A stretch of DNA of 59,829 bases, filler included, from Globobulimina sp. (lineage: Eukaryota), in the NCBI GenBank assembly GCA_003354225.1. It is 12 parts of 12 records of this genome, joined end to end, with 100 filler letters (N's around TTAATTAATTAA, not from the genome) between each part and the next. Parts side by side here need not be neighbours in the genome. Positions count along the whole stretch, not along the records: positions 34,975 to 39,867 come from PIVH01000862.1; 11 more parts are not named here. One strand, given 5' to 3'. Both the position numbers and the translations under genes were made by a program. The first letter of the stretch is position 1, and each line of letters opens with the position of its first letter. This document shows, one piece after another, positions 29,982 to 54,693 of this stretch. Below the pieces are notes generated by a model. That model saw nothing but the letters and a program-made list of their open reading frames with translations, had not been told where the DNA came from and searched no databases.

Positions 29982-32900
29982 GAAGGATCATTGTAGATCA
30001 TGGTTTTGCATTTCTTCGCATTAAAATTATATGCCCAATTTGTGCTATGTTGTTCGCATATTTTTAGCAGCGCAGCCAGGTTCTCGATCGAGTTGGCAGT
30101 TAGGACCACATCGTCAGCATAGAAGATGCAGGCGATTAGTAAGTTTGGATCGGGAGAAGTTGCGCCTTTTTGCGAGAGTTGCAGCTGATCAATCATGTCA
30201 TTTATGAACGCAGCGAATAGGATAGGGCTGAGGACAGAGCCCTGCAACACTCCATTATGCAGTTGAAAGAGTTCGGTTATAAATGGAACATCCCGTATTG
30301 CCGAATGCGAATTGTTATAAATTGCCTGAATGATTTTGCAGATATTTACGGGAATTTGGAAATTGGAGTGTAGTTTGTAAAATAGTCCTTTACGCCACAC
30401 TGTATCGAATGCTTTTCTTATGTCGAGAGAGGCGCAGTAGAGGGGTTTGTTTTGTATGGTGGCGGTTTGTGATATTAGGTGCAGTGTACCTATTTGTTCA
30501 GGGACGCCTCTTTTCGCTCGATTTCCGCCTTGGAGTATATGTAGGTTTCGTCTGAAGCCGTGCTGGATGTTCATATTCCAAAGAACCAGTCGTTCATATG
30601 CCTTAAAGATTAGTGGCAATAATGTGATGGGTCTGTACTGATTTGGGGTGTCACCATCAGGGGTTTTAAGAATGGAAATGACTGACCCCAGGCGACAATA
30701 ATAGGGTATGATATATGTTGCATTCCAGACATTGTACATATTACACAGGAGTTTATTTACCAGGTCTCCATTCAATTTGAGATGCTGTGACTTGATGCCA
30801 TCATATCCCGGGGCGGAGTGGGCATTTGCAAACTGTAAGGCCATCTCAACTGAGGAATATTTCAGATAGGGATCAATGTCGTTATTATTTTGTGTATCGG
30901 ATGGCGTTGCGTTTTGTGCATTGTCTGGAGATTCAGGGATGTGGCCCGGTGTGATACATAGCAGATCATCGGTGATTACATCATTATCATCATCAGTTTG
31001 AATGTTGTTCGCGAGTTTATATTCTATTTCGAACATATCATCCTGTTCATTGCCACTATTTTTGGCAAAGTCTGGGTCAAATTGAGGAACACCTTCGATA
31101 TGGTTAGGATGTACCCACGGTTCAGGATCATTATTATGGCTTTCTAGTGGTGGCGGTGCAGGGGATGGGATGTCATTTACTGTGCCGTTCTCATCTGGTT
31201 TGGAAGGGATGAAATTCAAAGTGTTATGGATGTAATTATTCAAATCAGCGTTAAATTGATTTATTTTGTTTATATTGGGGTTTGTTGTGGGATCTGCAAT
31301 GGGACCATTGATTCGAGCAAAGAAATCTGCTAAGGCTGCATTCTTGGGGACCAGCTGATTGTTATATTTTAGGAAAGGTTCATCTTCTAAGTAATCGAGG
31401 CTGCGGTTCATGGATTTGTAGCGTTTTAGTTTCTGGCAATGGCTCAGATTACTGAAGTGTATCGTGTTACGTCTCAGATTATCAATTTTATCCTGTTCAT
31501 AAATTTTCCGTGCATCGGTCATTATCTGTTTTCCCTGCGTGTATTCATTATTTGTGTTATTAAGGCAATTTTGCTTGATGTTCAAATCTAATCTTTTAAT
31601 GGAGGATTCTGACCATTTATTCATAGATTCAAAATCTGAAACACCAAAGGTTTTGATGGTGGCCAGATGTAAGGTGTACATTGTGCAGAGCGAGGTGATA
31701 TTGGAGATGAATTTACGGTCATTGGGGCTCGTGTAGTACTGCGTACCGTCGCTAAACTTTTTAATGTGACGTAGTCGGTCTGCTATTATCTGACGGTGTA
31801 TCTCCTTCAGACTTTCTTTGGGGTCATAGCCTCTTAATACAAAGTGTTGATCCGCGTATGAAACGTTGCATTGTGTGTTTTTCAGGGCAAATATGACCGG
31901 TCTATGATCTGTGAAAATCGGGTTAGTGTCGACTTTGAGTGTTTCAATGGCTGTCAATTTATCAGTCATTACATAATCTATTATGGAGCCTCCTGCGTGT
32001 GCAGTATCTTTGGAGAGGCAGGTCAGAAAATGTGGAGCAAATATGGGGTTGGCAATGCGGAGATTGGTTATATTTAACAGGGATTTCATGTGCGGATAAT
32101 GTGAATTTGTATTATGATCAGTTGTTTGCGAGCCAAGTCTGGCGTTGAAGTCGCCTATTACAAATAAGTTGTTACATTTGGTTTTGAATCGTTGAATGTC
32201 CTCTGTTAAGGTATTGTAGAACTTTGTGCTGCGATTTGACAGATTTGATCTGTATGGACGTATATAATTTACCGATAGATAGGTGGGTTTGGTTTGTCTT
32301 TCAAATGTTATGGATAGCCAAATAGTGTTCATTCCTCTGGTTTTCTGTATGTAGTTTATTTTGTTTTTGAGGTGTCTTTTTTTGTAGATCATAATTCCTC
32401 CAACGTGGGAATAATTGTTGGTGTGCATTGGGGCTTTGTGCGCAATCAGGGAGTAACCAGGGAGGTTCCAGTCTGGTCGTTTTATGCATCTGGTGTCAAT
32501 TAGGCAAATGAGGTCAAGTTTGTGCTGCACTACTAATTGTTGCATGTATGGATGGACAATTTGTGACTTATACTTTGCATTGCCGTTAATATTCATGAAG
32601 CCAATTGTTAGGTTTTTGAGGGAGATTTTTGTGGCGATTATGGGTTCAATCGATGGCGCGTACATTTGTAGGAAGGGAAATTTTTGAATGATGTTTGGTA
32701 GATCCTCTGTTTTGAAGAGCTGGTCACTGAGATGCGATTGTATGGTTTTATGGACGAGATATTTTTTATACTTTCTTAGGTTGGGATGGGATGTTTGGTG
32801 GGTATTTATTGCGTATTTGAAGAGTTGGTTTAAGGAGATTATTGCGTTGTTTTTCATGTTATTGATGTGGTTGGATCGGTTTATTCTGTACAAATTTGTG

Positions 32901-33394
32901 CAATTGTAACGCTGTATGGATTCCCAATGGGAGATGATCTCGCTGGCCTCATTTGTGTCAGGCACAGACCAACGGATGTGATATTTGCAGTGTTTGATGG
33001 ATTGTTGGATTATGGCATCTCCCTCAATGTACTTGAAGTCAGTTATAAAATCATGGATTTGTTTTATGACTGCCGGATCTCTGTGATACGCATGGATCTG
33101 CTCACAAGGTATTTCTTCAATGTCATTGTTAGAATAGGGGATTTTCTTGAAACGGAGTGGTATATTTTTGGGAAACGTGTGAATAATATGGTACTTTATG
33201 GGATTGAATCGGTGCACTGGCATTCTGAGAGTGACCCAACGGAGAGATTTGTGCATTATAATTCGGATATATTTGAAATATCCTCTGATCGAATGTTGAT
33301 TTTTTTCAATATATTTGTAGAGGATTTGTGTGTGCTTTTCTTCAACGGTACTGATCATATAACCAGTACTATAACGTTGTTTATCTGTCATCAT
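29982..33394 (-). mobile_element. Non-LTR retrotransposon (LINE) ORF2: APE endonuclease + RT, 3'-partial
   Basis: APE motifs GFMNING, VIGDFNA, SIIDYV, TDHRPV. RT motifs APGYDGI, YRPITLL, DIRKAFDTV, GVLQGSVLSPILF, FYADD, FNAKKC. Confidence 0.93.
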
Positions 33395-34874: not shown

Positions 34875-35003
34875 NNNNNNNNNNNNNNNNNNNNNNNNNN
34901 NNNNNNNNNNNNNNNNNNTTAATTAATTAANNNNNNNNNNNNNNNNNNNNNNNNNNNNNNNNNNNNNNNNNNNNCATATCTATATATATATATATGATAT
35001 GAT

Positions 35004-35133
35004 GTGAACTGACTAAGTTTCAATGTCAACACTTTGACAATGGCTGCTTTACGTTAGCCGAAAGCTCAGTGATAAACACTTTTAGATCAAACTAATACGT
35101 ACTATAATCTAATCATTTTATTAACAAATAAAT
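35004..35133 (+). repeat. PLE pseudo-LTR, left copy
   Basis: Matches 39351-39480 with 2 mismatches in 130 bp. Confidence 0.95.
35030..35071 (+). ncRNA. Minimal type I hammerhead ribozyme, U3-A8 core variant (left copy)
   Basis: CACT-TTGACAA-T-GGCTG..TAGCC-GAAA-GC-TC-AGTG: stem I CACT/AGTG, stem II GGCTG/TAGCC, minimal palindromic stem III. Predicted cleavage after C35067. Confidence 0.75.
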
Positions 35134-35144
35134 TCAAGTCCTTT

Positions 35145-38100
35145 ATGGATCGAATGTGCAGTATTAGGACCAACCGATTTGGAAATCATGTGCGAACGTT
35201 CTCGAGTTTATTCCTTAGAAATCGAGTTCGTGTCATGCAGTCATGTATGGTCTCCAATTTTAGAGCGTTGCCTCATCGGTCGACATCGTCATCATTTATT
35301 CAATCTCATTCATCAGAAAACACCACAAATAGCGATTTCAACTTAAAACAACATGGATTATATTTTAGTGCAAGCATGAATTTCAACAAAGACGTCTGGC
35401 AATTTTATAAATTATATCGCGACTTAGCTCGTAAAGTCTTATGGAAATCGCACCATATCGATCATTACAACATTTGTGTATTACACTACAGAGATCCCTT
35501 CAAATTGTTGTTAAAAATCAAAGAAACTGTAATATCCACAAATAAGTCGAAAAAATCTCATGCTGCGATATTGCGTAGAACCTCCATACAATTAATAAAA
35601 AAGGAAAAGGCAGCTTTGAGAGAGAGAAATTGTGAGAATTTAAGCCAAATGAGACAATTATGGAAGAATTTAAACATAATTACCCCACATTCCGTACTAA
35701 CAAAATTAGCGAACGTAGCGGAATTGCAGTTATTCCATGAAATGGTAAGTATTGACCGCTTGGTCAAGAAGAGAATGAACAAATTATTTCAGTACACACC
35801 AGCTACGTTTTGGAAGAATTGGATTGAAAATCAACATCAATCCGATATAAATAGCTATAATTACAGCGAGCGAGGCAGCATTAAGAGAGTCAATGCAAAT
35901 GAGTTAGATTACAGCGCTGGAATTTGGAATAGAACGCGAAGCATTGATACAGACGAAGAGGAGCATGAAAGTGAAGAGAAACAATTGATGTTATCAGAAA
36001 ATGAGGTAACTACAGAAAATGTGCCGTATTGCTCGTATACCGATAGCTTTACAATTGATACAGAGACAACATTGCGTATTTTAGACGAATCGATACGAAA
36101 TAAAAAGCCGTCGAGTCAACGGAAAGTATTCCGTTTACAACAAGTTTTTCAACAATGTAAGAAAAGGAGAGCGTAGAAGAAAGGAAGTAGACGGAAACAG
36201 AGACATTTTGAGAAACAAAGAAGTAAATACAATGCATTTAGAAATAAGTTAGCACGCAAACGAAAAGATGCGATTTTGCGTAAAAAATGCAAAATATTGT
36301 TAAAAGAAGAAGCCTTAAAGTTGGCGCCGAAGCAAATCCTACCAAAAACAGACGAAAATATCAAAATTCATCCGGGTTTTGAAGATTTAGTAGCAAGGAG
36401 CCGGAATTTCGTAGTAAATCCCCGATTTTTCGATTTTAATAATATTTTTACGGGAATATTCAAATTAAAAAATTGCTGCAGATCATGGTATTATAATATT
36501 TATAATAAATTTGATTACAGCAAGAAAAAAGGAGAGGAAAAGGAAGAGAAAATTGAGCAAAAAGAGCGAATTTACGACGAAGAGGATTGGAGCGATTGGA
36601 AACCGTATTTGGTAAACACCAAAGAACGAAGATATCATTGTAAGAGCTCAGGAAATATAAAATTGGAAGCATTCCTGCACGAATTTGAGATGACATTATA
36701 TGATGAATGCATACATAATCAGGCATCAATAAAATATAAATTAAATTTAACAGATTTAGAAGAAGAGGCATATATGGACTGTATCGAAGAAAATCAGAAA
36801 CACAGCGACCCAAATCGTAAAGTTATGGTGAAGGAAGACAAGGGGTCGTTGTATATGGTGACAACAGCAGAGGTTTTGAATAATTTGGTATTGCAAACTC
36901 TGCCAAAATTAGGTTTTGAAGCAGCAAATAATTACAATTGGGAATTAGAGACTGATTTTTTGACAGAATTATTGTCGAAATGGGTGGATTTGGGAGAATT
37001 GAAAGAAAAGTGGTTTACAGCATTACAGCCACAATTTCCGACGAAATTCCATTATCGCGACGCAAATTTATATGCATTATGGAAGACGCACAAAAGTAAG
37101 CCGTCACTACGTTTAATTTCATCGTTCGTAGGGACGTTCTGGGAGGCAACGGATAAATTTATTGATTATGCAATTACGCCAATGTGGAACGCTGAATTAC
37201 AGAAAGGATTTTTATTGAAGGATACCAAAGATTTATTGATCAGAATCATCAAATTCAATGAAAATAAAAAGATTCAATGGGCCATCAAAGATAGAAAGGA
37301 TTTCATTGTATGGTCCTTTGACGTGGTAAAATTGTATCCGCCTATATTACATGAACAAGGATTGAAAAGCATGGACCATAAATTTAATCGATACAGAGAC
37401 TTATTACCATTACACCCGTCAAAAGAGTGCATTTTGGAGCTACTAAACGAAGCATTGAGGCGTGGCGTGGTAGTATGGAATGGTACACATTTTATTAAAC
37501 AAAGAGGATGCGGAATGGGTAGAAGTTGGGCCTGTCGCTATGCAGATTTAGCTATAGCGGATTATGACGATTTACTAAGTGATTGGGGGTGGGTACAAAG
37601 ACAATGTGCGCTTGAAATATTAATGCAGGGCAGATTCAGAGATGATTATTTTGGAGCGGGCTGCGGAGATATATTTGATTTGAAATGCATATTATTTGGG
37701 ATGAATAGCATGAATAAGTCGATCCAATTTACATTGGACTACGAGTTTGTAGACCGAGACGTGGATTTAAATGGGAAATATCTTGAAATATTAGATACGA
37801 AATTTTTGGTGCAGCGAAAATTGAAAACGTTCGACGACATAGAATTTATGGGTTGGGACATTGCGGTGGATGTACACTCAAAGGATACGGACACTCATTG
37901 TACTTTGGAGAACGATTCGTGTCATGTCCGACACCAAAAACGCGGTACAATCTCATCGACGGCATTAAGAATACGCAGTATCTGTGATGAGCAATTCATT
38001 GATAATCAATTTAGAAATTATTATAATAACGCCGGTAAAATTTATAAAAACATTGGAAACTTGGCATTGATTTTAAAAAGTATCAAAAAAGAATATACCG

Positions 38101-39077
38101 GCGAAGTGCTGCACTTTTTAGGCTTAGACGGCACGGATTGCTATGAATTAAATAACGGGAATCCGCTATTTTTAATGGAAACATTTGTGTTAAAACAATT
38201 AAAAGGAGAAAATCGATTTGTTATTGAAGCAAAACTATGCAAAGAAGAAATATATTATCAAACGCAATTTTGTGCGATTACGCATGGAATGAACAGTGGC
38301 AAAGACGCCAATAATACGGGGACGTTTACCAGAGATTTTACGAAAAAGATAGACGAAGAATTAATTGAATTGGAAGCAAATATGAGAGCAAAAGAAGTGG
38401 CAAAGATTACTCGCATTTTAGATAAAGAAAAATCAAAGGAATTGAAAGAAATTGAAAAACTAAAAAATGAGTTACATTTTTACTCATTAATGTACAACAA
38501 GAAAAATAAAGAAAATACAGCGGCGTTATCAAATATTAATTTATCGAAAATATCAGAAAACGAAGCAGCGGATGACATTGATTGGAATTTATTTTATAAT
38601 ACAGATGATTTAAACCCGTCTATATTTGCGGAGGAAGAGAGTTATTTATCCCGCATAAATTCGACAATTAACCAAAACTTAGTTTATTTATCACAGCAAG
38701 TTTTAGAGAACGACGGCGAGATACCGCCAAATCTGATAAATCAAACGATAAATCTAGGAAACTGCATCGATGATAAAAATGAATTACAAAGAAAATTAGA
38801 TGCAAAATTATCATTACTTTCATTAAACAGAGACGAAATTAGCAGTTTAGAATTGGAGCCAGCAGCGTTGGAAAAAGAGTTAGTGATTCTACACGAAAAT
38901 GACACAAACTTAGATTTGGATTTAACGTTCAACGCAGTCCAAACAGGAGAGGACGTATTAGATCTATGGGACGACGACATGGATAGCAGTAAGATACAGA
39001 ACACATTCCATTTGATAGTAAGTGGAAGCAATGGGAGAAAGACGTATTATTCAATGAAAGCGATAAAGATCAATTAG
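35145..39077 (+). CDS. PLE polyprotein: basic N-terminal region, RT, partial GIY-YIG C-terminus, acidic tail; one in-frame TAG at 36174-36176
   Basis: ORFs 35145-36176 and 36276-39077 are in the same frame and 36177-36275 is open, so only one TAG separates them. Confidence 0.8.
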
Positions 39078-39350
39078 AGCCGTTCGCATCGATGTTATAA
39101 TTGGATTAGTAATTAATTGGCTTGTTACATTATATTATATTCATGTTGTGTTATTTTGATTGATTGTTATGTGAATTTACAATATATTCAGTTATTATTT
39201 CAATTTTGGTTTCGGATTTATTTTTTATTTTTATTTTTATTGAAATAATCTTATTTAAAGAATTAATTTGTTATATATCTATATATTTGTTTCACGTGTG
39301 TTTTGTTTATGGTGTGTTGATTGTTTATCTTTTGTAGTTTTTTGTTTATT

Positions 39351-39480
39351 GTGAACTAACTAAGTTTCAATTTCAACACTTTGACAATGGCTGCTTTACG
39401 TTAGCCGAAAGCTCAGTGATAAACACTTTTAGATCAAACTAATACGTACTATAATCTAATCATTTTATTAACAAATAAAT
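39351..39480 (+). repeat. PLE pseudo-LTR, right copy
   Basis: Direct repeat of 35004-35133. Confidence 0.95.
39377..39418 (+). ncRNA. Minimal type I hammerhead ribozyme, U3-A8 core variant (right copy)
   Basis: Core identical to 35030-35071. Confidence 0.75.
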
Positions 39481-39867
39481 ATATATATGATATGATCACA
39501 CGACTACATATATCCGTACATAGAAATTTTGATCATATATATATATATGATCACACGACCACATATATCTGTGCATAGAAATTTTGATCATATCTATATA
39601 TATATGATATGATCACACGACTACATATATCCGTACATAGAAATTTTGATCATATCTATATATATATGATCGCACGACCACATATATCTGTGCATAGAAA
39701 TTTTGATCATATCTATATATATGATCACACGACCACATATATCTGTGCATAGAAATTTTGATCATATATATATATATATATGATATGATCACACGACTAC
39801 ATATATCCGTACATAGAAATTTTGATCATATCTATATATATGATCACACGACCACATATATCTGTGC
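39481..39867 (+). repeat. Tandem satellite, about 52-60-bp units of two variants
   Basis: Units (AT)n-GATATGATCACACGACTACATATATCCGTACATAGAAATTTTGATC and (AT)n-GATCACACGACCACATATATCTGTGCATAGAAATTTTGATC, about 7 copies. The same sequence is at 34975-35003. Confidence 0.95.
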
Positions 39868-50004: not shown

Positions 50005-53000
50005 TTATTCAGCAAAATTAAACGATTTTGGATTAATACCATTATTATGTTGTTTGTTTTCATCATCAATATCTTTGATAGCACTGGCAATCGCATTAAT
50101 TAATGCATTGTCATTCTCATTTTCATCATTCTCATCCTCGCCATCATCAGTTTCTGATCTTTCATTTCCATCCTTAAATGTATTTATTTTCAAATCATCA
50201 AAATCTTCAAAATTAATACTATTCCCATCATTACTGATATCAATACTCGATCGTGACTGTGAAACATACGATAATGTGTCATTCGTATCATTTGACTCTT
50301 CAATGCCATCACTATTCAAATCAAAAGAGAATACATTTGATTCTTCTTCCTCTTCATCTCCTTCTTGAATAACATCAGTTTTATAATCAAAAATATTGCC
50401 AGCCGCCACTCTCATCATTGCCAACTCCGCCGAACTAAACATGTCACCATTTTCAGTCACAGTGACACTCAAATCTGTATACGATATTTGTCGGCCATGT
50501 TGCGATTCGATATCATGAATAATAACAGACTCATTCTCATCGTCATTAAAAGATTCCATTTGTTCATCGTCATAATTATCAATTGTGTCACAAATTATTT
50601 GTTGCTCCTCTTCATTCTCGTCAATTGCGCGCATTTTACCTGATTTAGTGTCAATGCGTAAGAATAAATCATCGTTGCATAAATAACCAAAAACGTCCAA
50701 TGTGCGATCGGGATGAACAATATAATTATAATACGAATCAGCATCACTTGTACGGGTCATACTGGTCATACTCTTATCGGGCACATGTTTTCTTTCATTT
50801 ATATGTATGTCCTCTCTTTTATTCGTACAACAACATACTTTATGCACTAATAAACAGACATTTTTTATGCTTATTTTCATGTGCAAATTATACGAAAACA
50901 TCCATATTTTAATCCAGGTTGTAATATACACCCAAAATGGTTGAAATATGAATAAAAATATGATAATTGATACCGTGCTATAAATTAACCATTTAACAGA
51001 AGCAGAATGCGTTTCACTTAATTTATGATTCAATTCATTTATTGCTGTGTATGATAATTGTGATTCAATCAGTAACTTATTATTATTCTGCCAACATTCG
51101 TGCTGATATTTTGACTCTAAATGTTGCGTATTTTTTGTATTTATTCCTGCAGAATATTTCAAATCAAATTGTAATGAGAATAATATTGCTACAGTCGAAA
51201 CAAAACAGGTCCACATTATCAATAAAAACCAAGCTATACTTTTACAAAAATGTGGCAACGGATATAATGAATTTAACAAAGTAACGCGAACATCGTCCAC
51301 TAACTGCAACCTATGAACATTTGAGTTTGCTTTCCGTAGCTCTTCGACTGCAATGTCTAATGTTGATATTTTCTCATTGATCGAATTCCTTTTTAATCGC
51401 TGTAATGACTGTGCATATTTTTCATTTAAGTTACTTTGTTCATATTTTATGATTCTATCTTGATGCGAATCTCGTAAGTAATCCAATATTGACTCATCAT
51501 CCAACTCATCTGTCAGCGAATGCATTTTCTTTAATTCAGTTTCTTCAGAAAGACATACACGTTTTCGCACCGTTTTTGGCTGCGATTTTACAAATAATTC
51601 TTGCAAACAATACACCGGAAATAAACTAAATATGGAAGCAAATAATATCAGCTGCAATGCGATGTTATTTACAATATTAAAATGGTTTTTATTTATCTCA
51701 TTGTCTAAGTTTAAACCATAATACACTGACATTAACGCAAATACATTGCATAAATACATAAACAACAAACCAATCCTTGTCCGCACGGATATATTCGTAC
51801 CCGATGGATGCAAGAAAATTGATAAAAATAAATGAACATTAGCGATATATACAAAATATAATTTAGAATGTAATTTGAATAAATTACATAGCGATATGGT
51901 GCTGGATAGCTTACATATTCCGGAGCCAATAAATGTATTTATATCAATGTGCTTTTTGGTTAAATATTTTTCAATGTATAATATCTCTTTACCTGCGATA
52001 TCATTCTTCATTCTTTCATTTCTTTTTTTAATAAATATCACGTCTTCGTATGCCAAAATTGGTCGATTTATGGTCTTATCCACCCATTTTAAACCGGATA
52101 GAAATATTATAGTTATTAGTAAAATGCCAATGGTAATCCATACAATGTAATGTTTGTGAAAGTTTTGTGAAGAAATCTCGCGCCAATTCCACGCTGCAAT
52201 GACACTCGGAATCAAAATAAATTCATCTTGGAATATTCTATGCGTTCCCAAACCTGTACAGCCACAAGTTATTGAATCATTATTTATATCATACACAAAA
52301 CAATTATTATCTGACCATTCATCAAAGGAATTATTCCAGATTTTACATGCTGGGAATAATGTGTTTTCATATAATTTATAATCATTATCATTGAAATTGG
52401 TGTTATGAAAAGTAATTAGATATGGCTCACATTGACTTGTTTTTTGATATGAATTGATTGGTAAATGACTATCTTTTCCATATAAATTGACAGAAATTGT
52501 ATTATTAAATTGTATCAAACTACAATCAATGACAGCATTTTGTGTATTAATCACCGTAGGAATGGTAACAAATTCATTTTGAAATCCACATTTTATGCTG
52601 TTATTCGCATCAAAATGAGTGGCAAACTTCTGTGCTAACACATGTTTTTCAGCCATCTCATGAGTAAATATTTCGCCAGGATACGAATCTAATAATGCTA
52701 AATAAGACGCATGCAATGCATTCTCCACCAACACAGAGTTTAAATTATGAATATATCCCGCCTCTGCATCCAATGTCGATACATACCGTTCTAAATTTTG
52801 TATCAATCGAAGCAATTCTACAGCCATTGCATATAAATCCATATGTTCAGTATTAGCTGTCTCAATATTGTCTATCTCATCCAGTGCATTTATATGATGA
52901 ATAGCATGAACATCAACATAATCTCTCGCCAAATGCAATACATTATTTGTATATTTATAAGTTAACATATTCAATGCATTAAATCCAATATATCCCTCAC

Positions 53001-54693
53001 TATTTGTTGCTGCTATTAACATAGATATTTCCTGCAACTTATCCTGTAATGAAGTAGTATCACTCGCTTTGAATAAACCATCAAATAATTTATCTGTAAT
53101 CTGCATATAAAATGTATACAAAGGATCAGTTGATTTAAGCACTGTAAACACTGCGCGTATGGTGGAAAATATCGACACAACATCAATTTTATTATCTATT
53201 CCCGTGTCAATAACCTCAGCTATCTCATCACTCAAAGCATTAATATCGCTAACATTTAGCTCAGGAAACTGCAAAATGACATCATAACAAGACACTGCCA
53301 ATGCTGTATCTTGAACCAACACAGTGATCACAGTATCGCCAGCTCCACCAATTGCCATTTCTAATGGATTGGGTACAAACTCGTTGATTACGGGAACATT
53401 GCCATATAATACATTATATCGCAGTTCTTTGTCACCCCCAACAAATGAATCCCAACCTGTACAATCTACGCTGTATTTCCTCCGTAAACGTAAACTACCA
53501 TTGCCATCATGATATATTTCACATTGACCACCTGAAGGCCCACTATGTGTTATCAACAAAATATTTGCAGATTTAACCGCTATTTCATCATTCACCACAA
53601 CATTTAATTTCAACTTATATTCATTTCCTGGTTGAAACACATGATGAAATTTCTTCTGTTTATCAGGACAATATCCCGCATGCTCTGTGCGTATCGATGC
53701 AATAATAACATAACAACTGAATACATCATACACTATTCCATCAATAATAAGCGAACCAGTCTTCGTATTATAAAACGTAATATCACTCTGTTGATCGTAG
53801 TATTCATTCAATGATATATACTGTTCCCCGTTTTGTAGCAACCATTCAAAGTGCTCTCCTAACTCCTTATCATTCAGTTTTACCTCAGATTTTACATACA
53901 CTTGCATTGATATTTCCAGTCTCGCATAAACATCATTGATCAGCACAGCATCGTCATACTCACTGGTATCGAATATGACAATTTTATACGTTGAAACAAT
54001 GCTCGTTGTGGAATAAAAAGAGGTTGGATTGGTGGTAGGAGTCGATGTTGGCGACATAGTACAGCCAGCCATGGATATAGAATAATGATACGAACTGTAA
54101 TCACATTGATAGCCAGCTTTATAAAATCCAGCTTTGTACCAATACCAATATTTATCTGCTGTATAGTCCACGTATTCATCGTCATTATATACGTTGACAC
54201 AGTCCATATGATTCACGCTGTTACTGGCTATAATCTGTAAATAATAATAACTGCCTGCTCTCAATGCAACGGTTAATCTCAATGGATTATCGACAGTGTA
54301 TATGGGTTCATATCCATTTGAGTCATGTATATTTGTCACATCATCTAATGAGTAAAGAATAATTATACCGTCAAAATACGATGAATGAGTTGCATCAATT
54401 GTCACATTGATATATTTGTCATCTGCACCATATTCATGTGGGATTTGTAGCAAATAATAATGACCATCATCACCCCACAAATTACGGGTTTGTCTATCAA
54501 TTAATTCGTAGTTACTATCAATGACATCACCGCATGATATTACTCCCAATACCGGTGTGTATGGGAAATGAGTGGCCGTTGCCAGTGATCCATCAGAACA
54601 TTTGCAAGTAGCTTCACAGGTTGACTTATCATGACATGATGTACTCGATCTATCGGCTGTATAGTATGTGGTGACATTGTCAAGACAACGCAA
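50005..54693 (-). CDS. Polycystin-1/REJ-like membrane protein with GPS motif, probably 5'-partial
   Basis: REJ-like PSGGQCEI..YSVDCTGW..LRYN. GPS PACKIWNNSFDEWSDNNC..ITCGCTGLGT. PKD1-like TM block HLFLSIF..SVRTRIGLLF..LPHFCKSIAW..KWL..FIFQP. PT linker and acidic tail. Confidence 0.8.
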   Translation of the reverse strand: MRCLDNVTTYYTADRSSTSCHDKSTCEATCKCSDGSLATATHFPYTPVLGVISCGDVIDSNYELIDRQTRNLWGDDGHYYLLQIPHEYGADDKYINVTIDATHSSYFDGIIILYSLDDVTNIHDSNGYEPIYTVDNPLRLTVALRAGSYYYLQIIASNSVNHMDCVNVYNDDEYVDYTADKYWYWYKAGFYKAGYQCDYSSYHYSISMAGCTMSPTSTPTTNPTSFYSTTSIVSTYKIVIFDTSEYDDAVLINDVYARLEISMQVYVKSEVKLNDKELGEHFEWLLQNGEQYISLNEYYDQQSDITFYNTKTGSLIIDGIVYDVFSCYVIIASIRTEHAGYCPDKQKKFHHVFQPGNEYKLKLNVVVNDEIAVKSANILLITHSGPSGGQCEIYHDGNGSLRLRRKYSVDCTGWDSFVGGDKELRYNVLYGNVPVINEFVPNPLEMAIGGAGDTVITVLVQDTALAVSCYDVILQFPELNVSDINALSDEIAEVIDTGIDNKIDVVSIFSTIRAVFTVLKSTDPLYTFYMQITDKLFDGLFKASDTTSLQDKLQEISMLIAATNSEGYIGFNALNMLTYKYTNNVLHLARDYVDVHAIHHINALDEIDNIETANTEHMDLYAMAVELLRLIQNLERYVSTLDAEAGYIHNLNSVLVENALHASYLALLDSYPGEIFTHEMAEKHVLAQKFATHFDANNSIKCGFQNEFVTIPTVINTQNAVIDCSLIQFNNTISVNLYGKDSHLPINSYQKTSQCEPYLITFHNTNFNDNDYKLYENTLFPACKIWNNSFDEWSDNNCFVYDINNDSITCGCTGLGTHRIFQDEFILIPSVIAAWNWREISSQNFHKHYIVWITIGILLITIIFLSGLKWVDKTINRPILAYEDVIFIKKRNERMKNDIAGKEILYIEKYLTKKHIDINTFIGSGICKLSSTISLCNLFKLHSKLYFVYIANVHLFLSIFLHPSGTNISVRTRIGLLFMYLCNVFALMSVYYGLNLDNEINKNHFNIVNNIALQLILFASIFSLFPVYCLQELFVKSQPKTVRKRVCLSEETELKKMHSLTDELDDESILDYLRDSHQDRIIKYEQSNLNEKYAQSLQRLKRNSINEKISTLDIAVEELRKANSNVHRLQLVDDVRVTLLNSLYPLPHFCKSIAWFLLIMWTCFVSTVAILFSLQFDLKYSAGINTKNTQHLESKYQHECWQNNNKLLIESQLSYTAINELNHKLSETHSASVKWLIYSTVSIIIFLFIFQPFWVYITTWIKIWMFSYNLHMKISIKNVCLLVHKVCCCTNKREDIHINERKHVPDKSMTSMTRTSDADSYYNYIVHPDRTLDVFGYLCNDDLFLRIDTKSGKMRAIDENEEEQQIICDTIDNYDDEQMESFNDDENESVIIHDIESQHGRQISYTDLSVTVTENGDMFSSAELAMMRVAAGNIFDYKTDVIQEGDEEEEESNVFSFDLNSDGIEESNDTNDTLSYVSQSRSSIDISNDGNSINFEDFDDLKINTFKDGNERSETDDGEDENDENENDNALINAIASAIKDIDDENKQHNNGINPKSFNFAE

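Follow-up and report, generated by a model that had tools for sequence, protein, structure and literature searches.

A Minimal Type-I Hammerhead Motif with a U3-A8 Core Pair in the Pseudo-LTRs of a Penelope-Like Element

Can a short RNA motif that departs from the consensus hammerhead core at two positions still be a ribozyme, and does it serve the retroelement that carries it? The question is raised by one contig (positions 34975–39867) within a window of 59,829 bases, the whole stretch of DNA analyzed, which is made of 12 unrelated contigs of 4,889–4,901 bp, sorted by size and separated by N44-TTAATTAATTAA-N44 linkers. A preliminary description of this DNA had recognized, in each pseudo-LTR of a Penelope-like element (PLE), a minimal type-I hammerhead, and had regarded its U3-A8 core pair as compensatory, its activity as dependent on two copies, and its host as a protist. 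The element, the motif, its relatives, and its possible function are taken in turn below.

The Element and Its Insertion Site

Repeat search delimits the element by two direct repeats on the + strand. The upstream pseudo-LTR (35003–35133) corresponds to the 3′-terminal 131 bp of the element, and the downstream one (39350–39480, also 131 bp) is that 3′ end itself; the repeat length had earlier been given as 130. The two copies are 98% identical, lie 4,347 nt apart from start to start, and flank a PLE of about 4.3 kb. Two open reading frames were predicted on the + strand: ORF1 (35145–36176), coding for 343 aa, and ORF2 (36276–39077), coding for a Penelope-type reverse transcriptase (RT) of 933 aa with its core at residues 180–585 or thereabouts. 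No Pfam family is found in either ORF, and neither RVT_1 nor GIY-YIG is detected in ORF2. An exhaustive phmmer search with ORF2 returned 606 homologs at E ≤ 1e-3. Among 18 of these scanned with Pfam (E ≤ 0.01, with some RVT_1 and GIY-YIG scores below the curated cut-offs), 8 contain RVT_1, 6 contain GIY-YIG, and 5 contain both, the RT preceding the endonuclease; the other domain-level outcome, neither RVT_1 nor GIY-YIG, is found in 9 of the 18, the closest matches to ORF2 among them. In an alignment of 24 sequences the RT catalytic aspartates, D456 and D457, are invariant, and the DKG and thumb blocks are present (most motif names follow the description in PMC8557442). Because ORF2 has the catalytic DD and the DKG and thumb blocks, and because its homologs pair an RT with GIY-YIG, the element is, to judge from its sequence, a Penelope-like element with pseudo-LTRs.

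This copy looks defective in its coding sequence, on account of an in-frame TAG and of the missing N-terminal half of GIY-YIG. The TAG (36174–36176) is the single stop that separates ORF1 from ORF2, both of which are in the same frame. Residues 95–204 of ORF1 resemble the N-terminus of P0004, a relative with a single ORF of 1,675 aa, and the match is weak but co-linear (31% identity, E 0.003). The stop could be a nonsense mutation, a site of programmed read-through, or a peculiarity of the genetic code. As for the endonuclease, residues 604–700 of ORF2 match only the C-terminal half of the GIY-YIG region of the relatives, and about 287 residues present in the latter, the GIY/YIG half included, are absent. 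The thumb and the endonuclease block are separated by 18 residues in ORF2 versus 305 in P0043, and the intervening part contains the GIY/YIG half in P0043, P0005, P0009, P0015, and P0035. Hence, the complete GIY-YIG endonuclease that is a trait of the EN+ clades is not found in ORF2, and this copy is, on its predicted protein, probably endonuclease-dead and would need mobilization in trans. The in-frame gap of about 287 residues maps to 37998–38090 of the window (ORF2 residues 575–604, approximately), where the linker and the GIY/YIG half have been lost and the C-terminal half kept. The Protein Atlas gave no lead for ORF1 (score 0.77); for the tail of ORF2 it pointed toward clusters with HTH_animal plus GIY-YIG, with a score of 0.81 that is below the 0.9 line and counts as a lead only.

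We considered and rejected a telomere-attached, endonuclease-deficient PLE of the Athena/Coprina type, since the 3′ end lacks reverse-complement telomeric repeats, the element is inserted within a satellite and flanked by an apparent target duplication, and a remnant of the endonuclease survives.

The satellite is found on both sides of the element. By repeat comparison, the 5′ flank (34975–35002) contains a (TA)n satellite, and the 3′ flank (39481–39867) is a tandem satellite with (TA)n, of 6.6 copies and a period of about 55–60 nt. The target-site duplication of 16–17 bp (34987–35003, repeated at 39480–39496) is an apparent one, since the contig has 28 nt of 5′ flank and this flank is repetitive in its own right. 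The (TA)n satellite appears to be the insertion target of the PLE. It is extremely abundant in run X1, the sole run matching the contig, where the summed contig depth is 5e4–8e4 in the bins of the 3′ satellite versus 8–58 inside the element. The satellite (39481–39867 and 34975–35002) is the only part present in runs X2 and X3.

The family itself looks young, given that 179 of 958 aligned X1 contigs are at least 99% alike, that the pseudo-LTRs are 98% identical, and that the two ribozyme motifs are identical. Many diverged copies are seen in runs X1–X3. The 40 best-supported differences in these runs, which are accompanied by 662 others, include none within the ribozyme motif. One X1 contig (depth 6.4, shorter side 35 nt) skips 63 bases between the ribozyme and the body of the element (window 35073–35137), and may be a variant of the family that lacks the 3′ "tail."

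The Motif in the Two Pseudo-LTRs

The 42-nt motif occurs exactly twice in the window, at 35030–35071 and 39377–39418, on the + strand and without mismatches, as the preliminary description had it. The upstream copy was delimited by sequence parse, descriptor, and covariance model. Helix I (CACU/AGUG, 4 bp) is formed by 35030–35033 with 35068–35071. It is followed by the core UUGACAA (U3 to A9, 35034–35040), by an extra U at 35041, and by helix II (GGCUG/UAGCC, 5 bp, with an 8-nt loop), which pairs 35042–35046 with 35055–35059. Then come GAA (G12-A13-A14, 35060–35062), the palindromic AGCU (A15.1-G-C-U16.1, 35063–35066), and C17 at 35067, and the predicted cut separates 35067 from 35068. The downstream copy, found by the same means, is identical, with its predicted cut between 39414 and 39415. 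The helices and the core had been parsed correctly before, down to the predicted bond after C35067 and C39414.

All the positions that define the hammerhead core are present, and the positions that vary are all ones at which ribozymes tolerate variation. In both copies U4-G5-A6, A9, and G12-A13-A14 are intact. A15.1 and U16.1 are present (A35063 and U35066), and the cleavage-site base H17 is C35067, not G. Positions 3 and 8 form a Watson-Crick pair, U3-A8, which is not the consensus C-G but is isosteric with it. The motif also has the four extra hallmarks listed for minimal hammerheads of PLEs. Those given for the family in PMC4209133 include an extra nucleotide after position 9, a G10.1-C11.1 pair, and a palindromic helix III; here, U35041 stands between A9 and G10.1, helix II opens with G10.1-C11.1, and helix III is only the palindromic AGCU. 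Because A15.1 and U16.1 enclose only G and C, a lone copy cannot close helix III over the 2-nt gap. The helix can form only between copies, as had been proposed. The weak points of the motif are a helix I of only 4 bp and the absence of loop–loop tertiary contacts.

Chance is excluded as the source of such a pair of motifs. None of 100 dinucleotide shuffles gave two matches to the 42-nt string. A descriptor of minimal hammerheads written from published rules finds only these two sites on both strands of the 59.8-kb window; its strict version has no match among 400 random sequences of 58.7 kb drawn from a first-order Markov model, and 4 of the 400 match a relaxed version. The descriptor was composed after the motif had already been seen, so that the figures for random matches are generous, although the gap is wide.

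Searches with existing models were silent. Rfam reports no hammerhead in the window at its gathering score, and none at E ≤ 10 on the contig or on 111 nt. It equally misses the motifs of related elements (see following), which have a canonical core, and for this reason its silence is uninformative and the U3-A8 pair cannot be the sole cause of the miss: the Rfam models do not cover minimal hammerheads without helix III. As had been expected, CUGANGA descriptors miss the motif; so does Rfam, which does no better with a canonical core. Since neither approach recovers such motifs, they are under-annotated.

A covariance search, also suggested earlier, was run with a model made only from the three relatives with a canonical core. 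Both window sites rank first, over their full length, with 15.1 bits; this is a weak score, corresponding to a rough E of ~0.1, with background matches of up to 11.5 bits elsewhere in the window and up to 12.6 bits in the related loci. Minimum free energy (MFE) folding of the 42 nt forms helices I and II, and the folding energies of the motifs do not differ from those of shuffled sequences (z from −0.62 to +0.11). For the dimer, nearest-neighbor energies are −15.7 kcal/mol for the double hammerhead, −14.4 for two monomers, and −21.9 for the predicted optimum, which is another fold. Folding energies are uninformative for a motif of 36–42 nt that depends on tertiary contacts.

Related Loci and the 3/8 Pair

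A metagenome scan, with alignment of the closest RTs, yielded five related loci (L001–L005); there were none among viral_contigs or genome_contigs. The loci were searched with a general type-I descriptor that accepts any Watson-Crick pair at 3/8, leaves the extra base optional, and permits helix III to be a palindrome or a hairpin. It has a single match in L002, one in L003, and one in L004, and the two window sites are likewise its sole matches in the window. The chance expectation is 0.073 matches per 20.9 kb (22 of 300 random sets had a match). L001 and L005 have no hammerhead by either the descriptor or the covariance model. L005 is only 1,380 bp long, and in L001 the RT match starts at base 1155, so that the region upstream of ORF1 is probably off the contig.

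In L002–L004 the motif precedes ORF1 on the coding strand. It occupies 609–644 in L003, where ORF1 starts at 721, 77 nt downstream of the end of the motif; in the window it ends at 35071 and the ATG of ORF1 is at 35145. The RT of L003, the sole locus compared, is 27% identical to that of the window. The motif of the relatives reads ACU, CUGA(C/U)GA, A, GCUU(U), loop, (G)AAGC, GAA, AGCU, U, AGU, with a helix I of 3 bp and a helix II of 4–5 bp. Invariant between the window and the relatives are U4-G5-A6, A9, G12-A13-A14, AGCU, and three pairs of helix I. Positions 3 and 8 are U-A in the window and C-G in L002–L004, and in helix II the sequence differs but the pairing, with G10.1-C11.1, is retained. 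The variable positions are N7 (C or U), H17 (C in the window, U in the relatives), the extra base (U in the window, A in the relatives), and loop 2.

A motif shared by elements with RTs only 27% identical has been kept over a long divergence, in which 3/8 and most of helix II changed with their pairing preserved. As far as the aligned sequences go, this pattern of variation is the one expected of a hammerhead under selection. It stems from two lineages only, and the 3/8 covariation counts as a single event, because L002–L004 are nearly identical to each other; in a sequence-based alignment, moreover, part of the helix II difference corresponds to a 4-nt indel and a register shift and not to paired substitutions. 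Both the compensatory nature of U3-A8 and the conservation of stems and core, for which a check in related copies had been proposed, are borne out by these loci: the former by C3-G8 at the same place in related elements, the latter by L002–L004, three of the five.

The contigs of L002, L003, and L004 end as they begin, over 127, 219, and 117 nt, respectively. Their units are 4,943, 4,744, and 4,929 bp long. This suggests head-to-tail tandem arrays assembled as circles. These loci have two ORFs, in different frames in L003. The ORF1 of the relatives is ~600 aa long, with aspartate-rich repeats in L002 and L004.

The U3-A8 variant itself is already published, and the novelty that the preliminary description implied for it does not hold. 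In the account of Perreault et al. (2011, PMC3088659), C3/G8 covary to U3/A8 in several natural hammerheads, and cores with covarying 3/8 positions had already been proven active in vitro; these variants have the same compensatory change as the window motif, and that account does not describe them as PLE-borne. Cervera and de la Peña (2014, PMC4209133) describe minimal hammerheads of Schistosoma mansoni PLEs with U3-A8 in place of C3-G8, and give ~1,300 matches to a descriptor built on this core. The supplements of such papers may list further cases. The work on the PLE of the lizard Anolis (PMC11167929) reports that C3G or G8C abolishes cleavage and that the double mutant partly restores it. 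What the present comparison provides is a clean natural switch from C-G to U-A at the 3/8 tertiary pair between related retroelements, with the catalytic bases all fixed, and this supports the view that the tiny motifs of PLEs are kept for ribozyme function.

Possible Function, Rival Readings, and Host

The motif is very probably a genuine PLE hammerhead. The fuller statement, namely, a genuine minimal type-I hammerhead that also cleaves in vivo, is one toward which we lean. In this reading, the isosteric U3-A8 stands in for the C3-G8 tertiary pair of a catalytic core that is otherwise intact. Two copies, brought by one read-through transcript across both pseudo-LTRs or by two transcripts, would associate into a double hammerhead in which helix II forms within each copy, the palindromic AGCU segments pair as a helix III of 4 bp, and the strands of helix I are swapped. 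Each active site would then cut after C17 (C35067 and C39414), and both cuts together would release a unit-length RNA of 4,347 nt, whose first base, bearing a 5′-OH, would lie 77 nt ahead of the ORF1 ATG and whose 3′ end would be a 2′,3′-cyclic phosphate. We infer dimer formation, cleavage, and any role in the element's cycle; a role in RNA processing has been proposed for PLE hammerheads in PMC4209133 and PMC8557442.

The alternative that survives best is a true hammerhead by descent that is functionally idle, a hitch-hiker or relic with little or no cleavage in vivo. The motif would then persist as a part of the pseudo-LTR kept for RT or RNP binding, as a promoter or transcription start, or for recognition of the 3′ end. 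Such a reading has precedents. Minimal PLE hammerheads are described as cleaving poorly in vitro (PMC4209133). In the Anolis element, the one PLE tested biochemically, ribozyme mutants left insertion in vitro unchanged and none of the RNA-seq reads had an end at the site, according to PMC11167929. By the account in PMC8557442, canonical hammerheads are missing from Naiad and from most Chlamys PLEs, which thrive nonetheless, and hammerheads may simply parasitize PLEs. The present copy, with its in-frame TAG and without half of its endonuclease, looks defective, and its upstream repeat was reverse-transcribed uncut: since the upstream pseudo-LTR was copied into DNA together with the bases 5′ of the cut site, either the template RNA was uncut there or template switching made the repeat. 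The variation between lineages, however, fits catalysis and not protein binding. The catalytic bases are invariant, positions 3 and 8 changed in concert, helix II stayed paired and retained G10.1-C11.1, and the changes fall at N7, H17, and loop 2, all this between RTs only 27% identical. We thus regard an idle motif as unlikely, though it deserves to be taken seriously.

It is far less probable that the conserved feature is some other structure resembling a hammerhead, be it a set of competing hairpins or a signal at the DNA level such as the palindromic AGCT. Alternative folds can indeed be drawn. The MFE structure of the upstream 131-nt repeat pairs UGUCAA (35024–35029) with UUGACA of the core (35034–35039), and that of L002–L004 is a 7-bp hairpin, AAGCUUU/AAAGCUU, and not the hammerhead fold. 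But these two hairpins have nothing in common and neither is conserved from one lineage to the other, a G-to-T change at 39372 disrupts the window hairpin in the downstream copy, and the hammerhead is the only fold common to all four distinct sequences. The 6-bp UGUCAA/UUGACA hairpin (35024–35039) would sequester the catalytic core, and its downstream counterpart (39371–39386) is broken; it may be a copy-specific off-state or a product of chance. Finally, a chance resemblance in an AT-rich repeat, to which the shortness of the motif, a descriptor composed after the fact, and a covariance-model E of only ~0.1 lend some color, is hardly credible and effectively refuted by the 0 of 400 random sequences that match the strict descriptor, by the same architecture at the same place in three of five related loci where 0.073 matches per 20.9 kb were expected, and by a location like that of published PLE hammerheads, which are described in pseudo-LTRs (PMC4209133) and near the 3′ ends of elements (PMC8557442).

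The genuine PLE hammerhead that we favor can be set beside several known systems. The closest are the Cercyon-type PLEs of S. mansoni, in which, as here, a minimal type-I hammerhead in the pseudo-LTRs has U3-A8 and is missed by the standard descriptor (PMC4209133). Compared with the text description of those elements, the present one differs in its apparent foraminiferal host and in a divergent RT undetected by RVT_1. The minimal and dimeric hammerheads found in EN+ PLEs of metazoans (Penelope/Poseidon, Neptune, Nematis), along with the double hammerheads in satellites of newt and Schistosoma, share with the window motif the type-I topology, a helix III of 1–2 bp with a palindromic cap that makes two copies necessary, and a position near the 3′ end of the element on the sense strand. 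Unlike them, the window motif has a U-A core pair, a 4-bp helix I, and no loop–loop tertiary contacts. The endonuclease-deficient telomeric PLEs of protists and fungi (Athena, Coprina) resemble it in being PLE-associated and in that some of their hosts are protists. Their hammerheads, however, are said to be stable as monomers, to have a long helix III, and to adjoin reverse-complement telomeric repeats (PMC4209133, PMC8557442), whereas the window motif has a minimal helix III of the dimer type, is not accompanied by telomeric repeats, and sits in an element inserted in a (TA)n satellite.

The placement of the host in a protist lineage agrees with the homologs of two genes. The closest named homolog of the RT is P0002, a protein of the foraminifer Bolivina argentea in EukProt, with 42–44% identity, and P0152, a member of the P0006 cluster (P0006 itself being 57% identical), is also from B. 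argentea. On another contig, a ubiquitin hydrolase of the DUSP-UCH type has its best named homolog in the foraminifer Nonionella stella (57% identity); its identity to named proteins of plants, animals, fungi, and other protists is 21–45%, over 14–46% of the query. As the element is, moreover, embedded in the satellite that predominates in run X1, the host is likely a foraminifer or a closely related rhizarian. A literature search brought up no paper on foraminiferal PLEs, and neither Reticulomyxa nor foraminifera appear in the main text of PMC8557442. According to that text, of 2021, canonical EN+ PLEs had until then been confined to animals, and PMC4209133 describes the PLE hammerheads of protists as monomer-stable with a long helix III.

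One may ask whether the element represents a lineage of foraminiferal (rhizarian) PLEs not described before, with a C-terminal GIY-YIG and a dimer-type minimal hammerhead of the kind described until now for animal PLEs, in which a recently amplified family fixed U3-A8 and distant relatives have C3-G8. We hold this as a tentative proposal, possible but short of probable. If it is true, PLEs with a C-terminal endonuclease and minimal hammerheads extend beyond Metazoa, and the two lineages amount to a natural experiment in which the 3/8 pair was selected for pairing in vivo. With a foraminiferal host, the range of dimer-type minimal hammerheads and of PLEs with a C-terminal endonuclease would come to include a protist supergroup, which would be a modest extension. 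It is the host, and not the U3-A8 variant, that may be new; existing knowledge of how hammerheads or PLEs work is left unchanged.

Other contigs of the window carry Pfam-matched genes. These are a Ty3/gypsy-type pol with RVT_1, RNase H, and integrase (1–3543), a LINE with AP endonuclease and RT (29982–33394), a Schlafen AlbA_2 protein (10270–11286), and a REJ-domain protein (50005–54693). A further frame of 1,616 aa (5050–9898) has the N-terminal part of an Hsp70 at its end, preceded by ~1,400 residues without a Pfam match.
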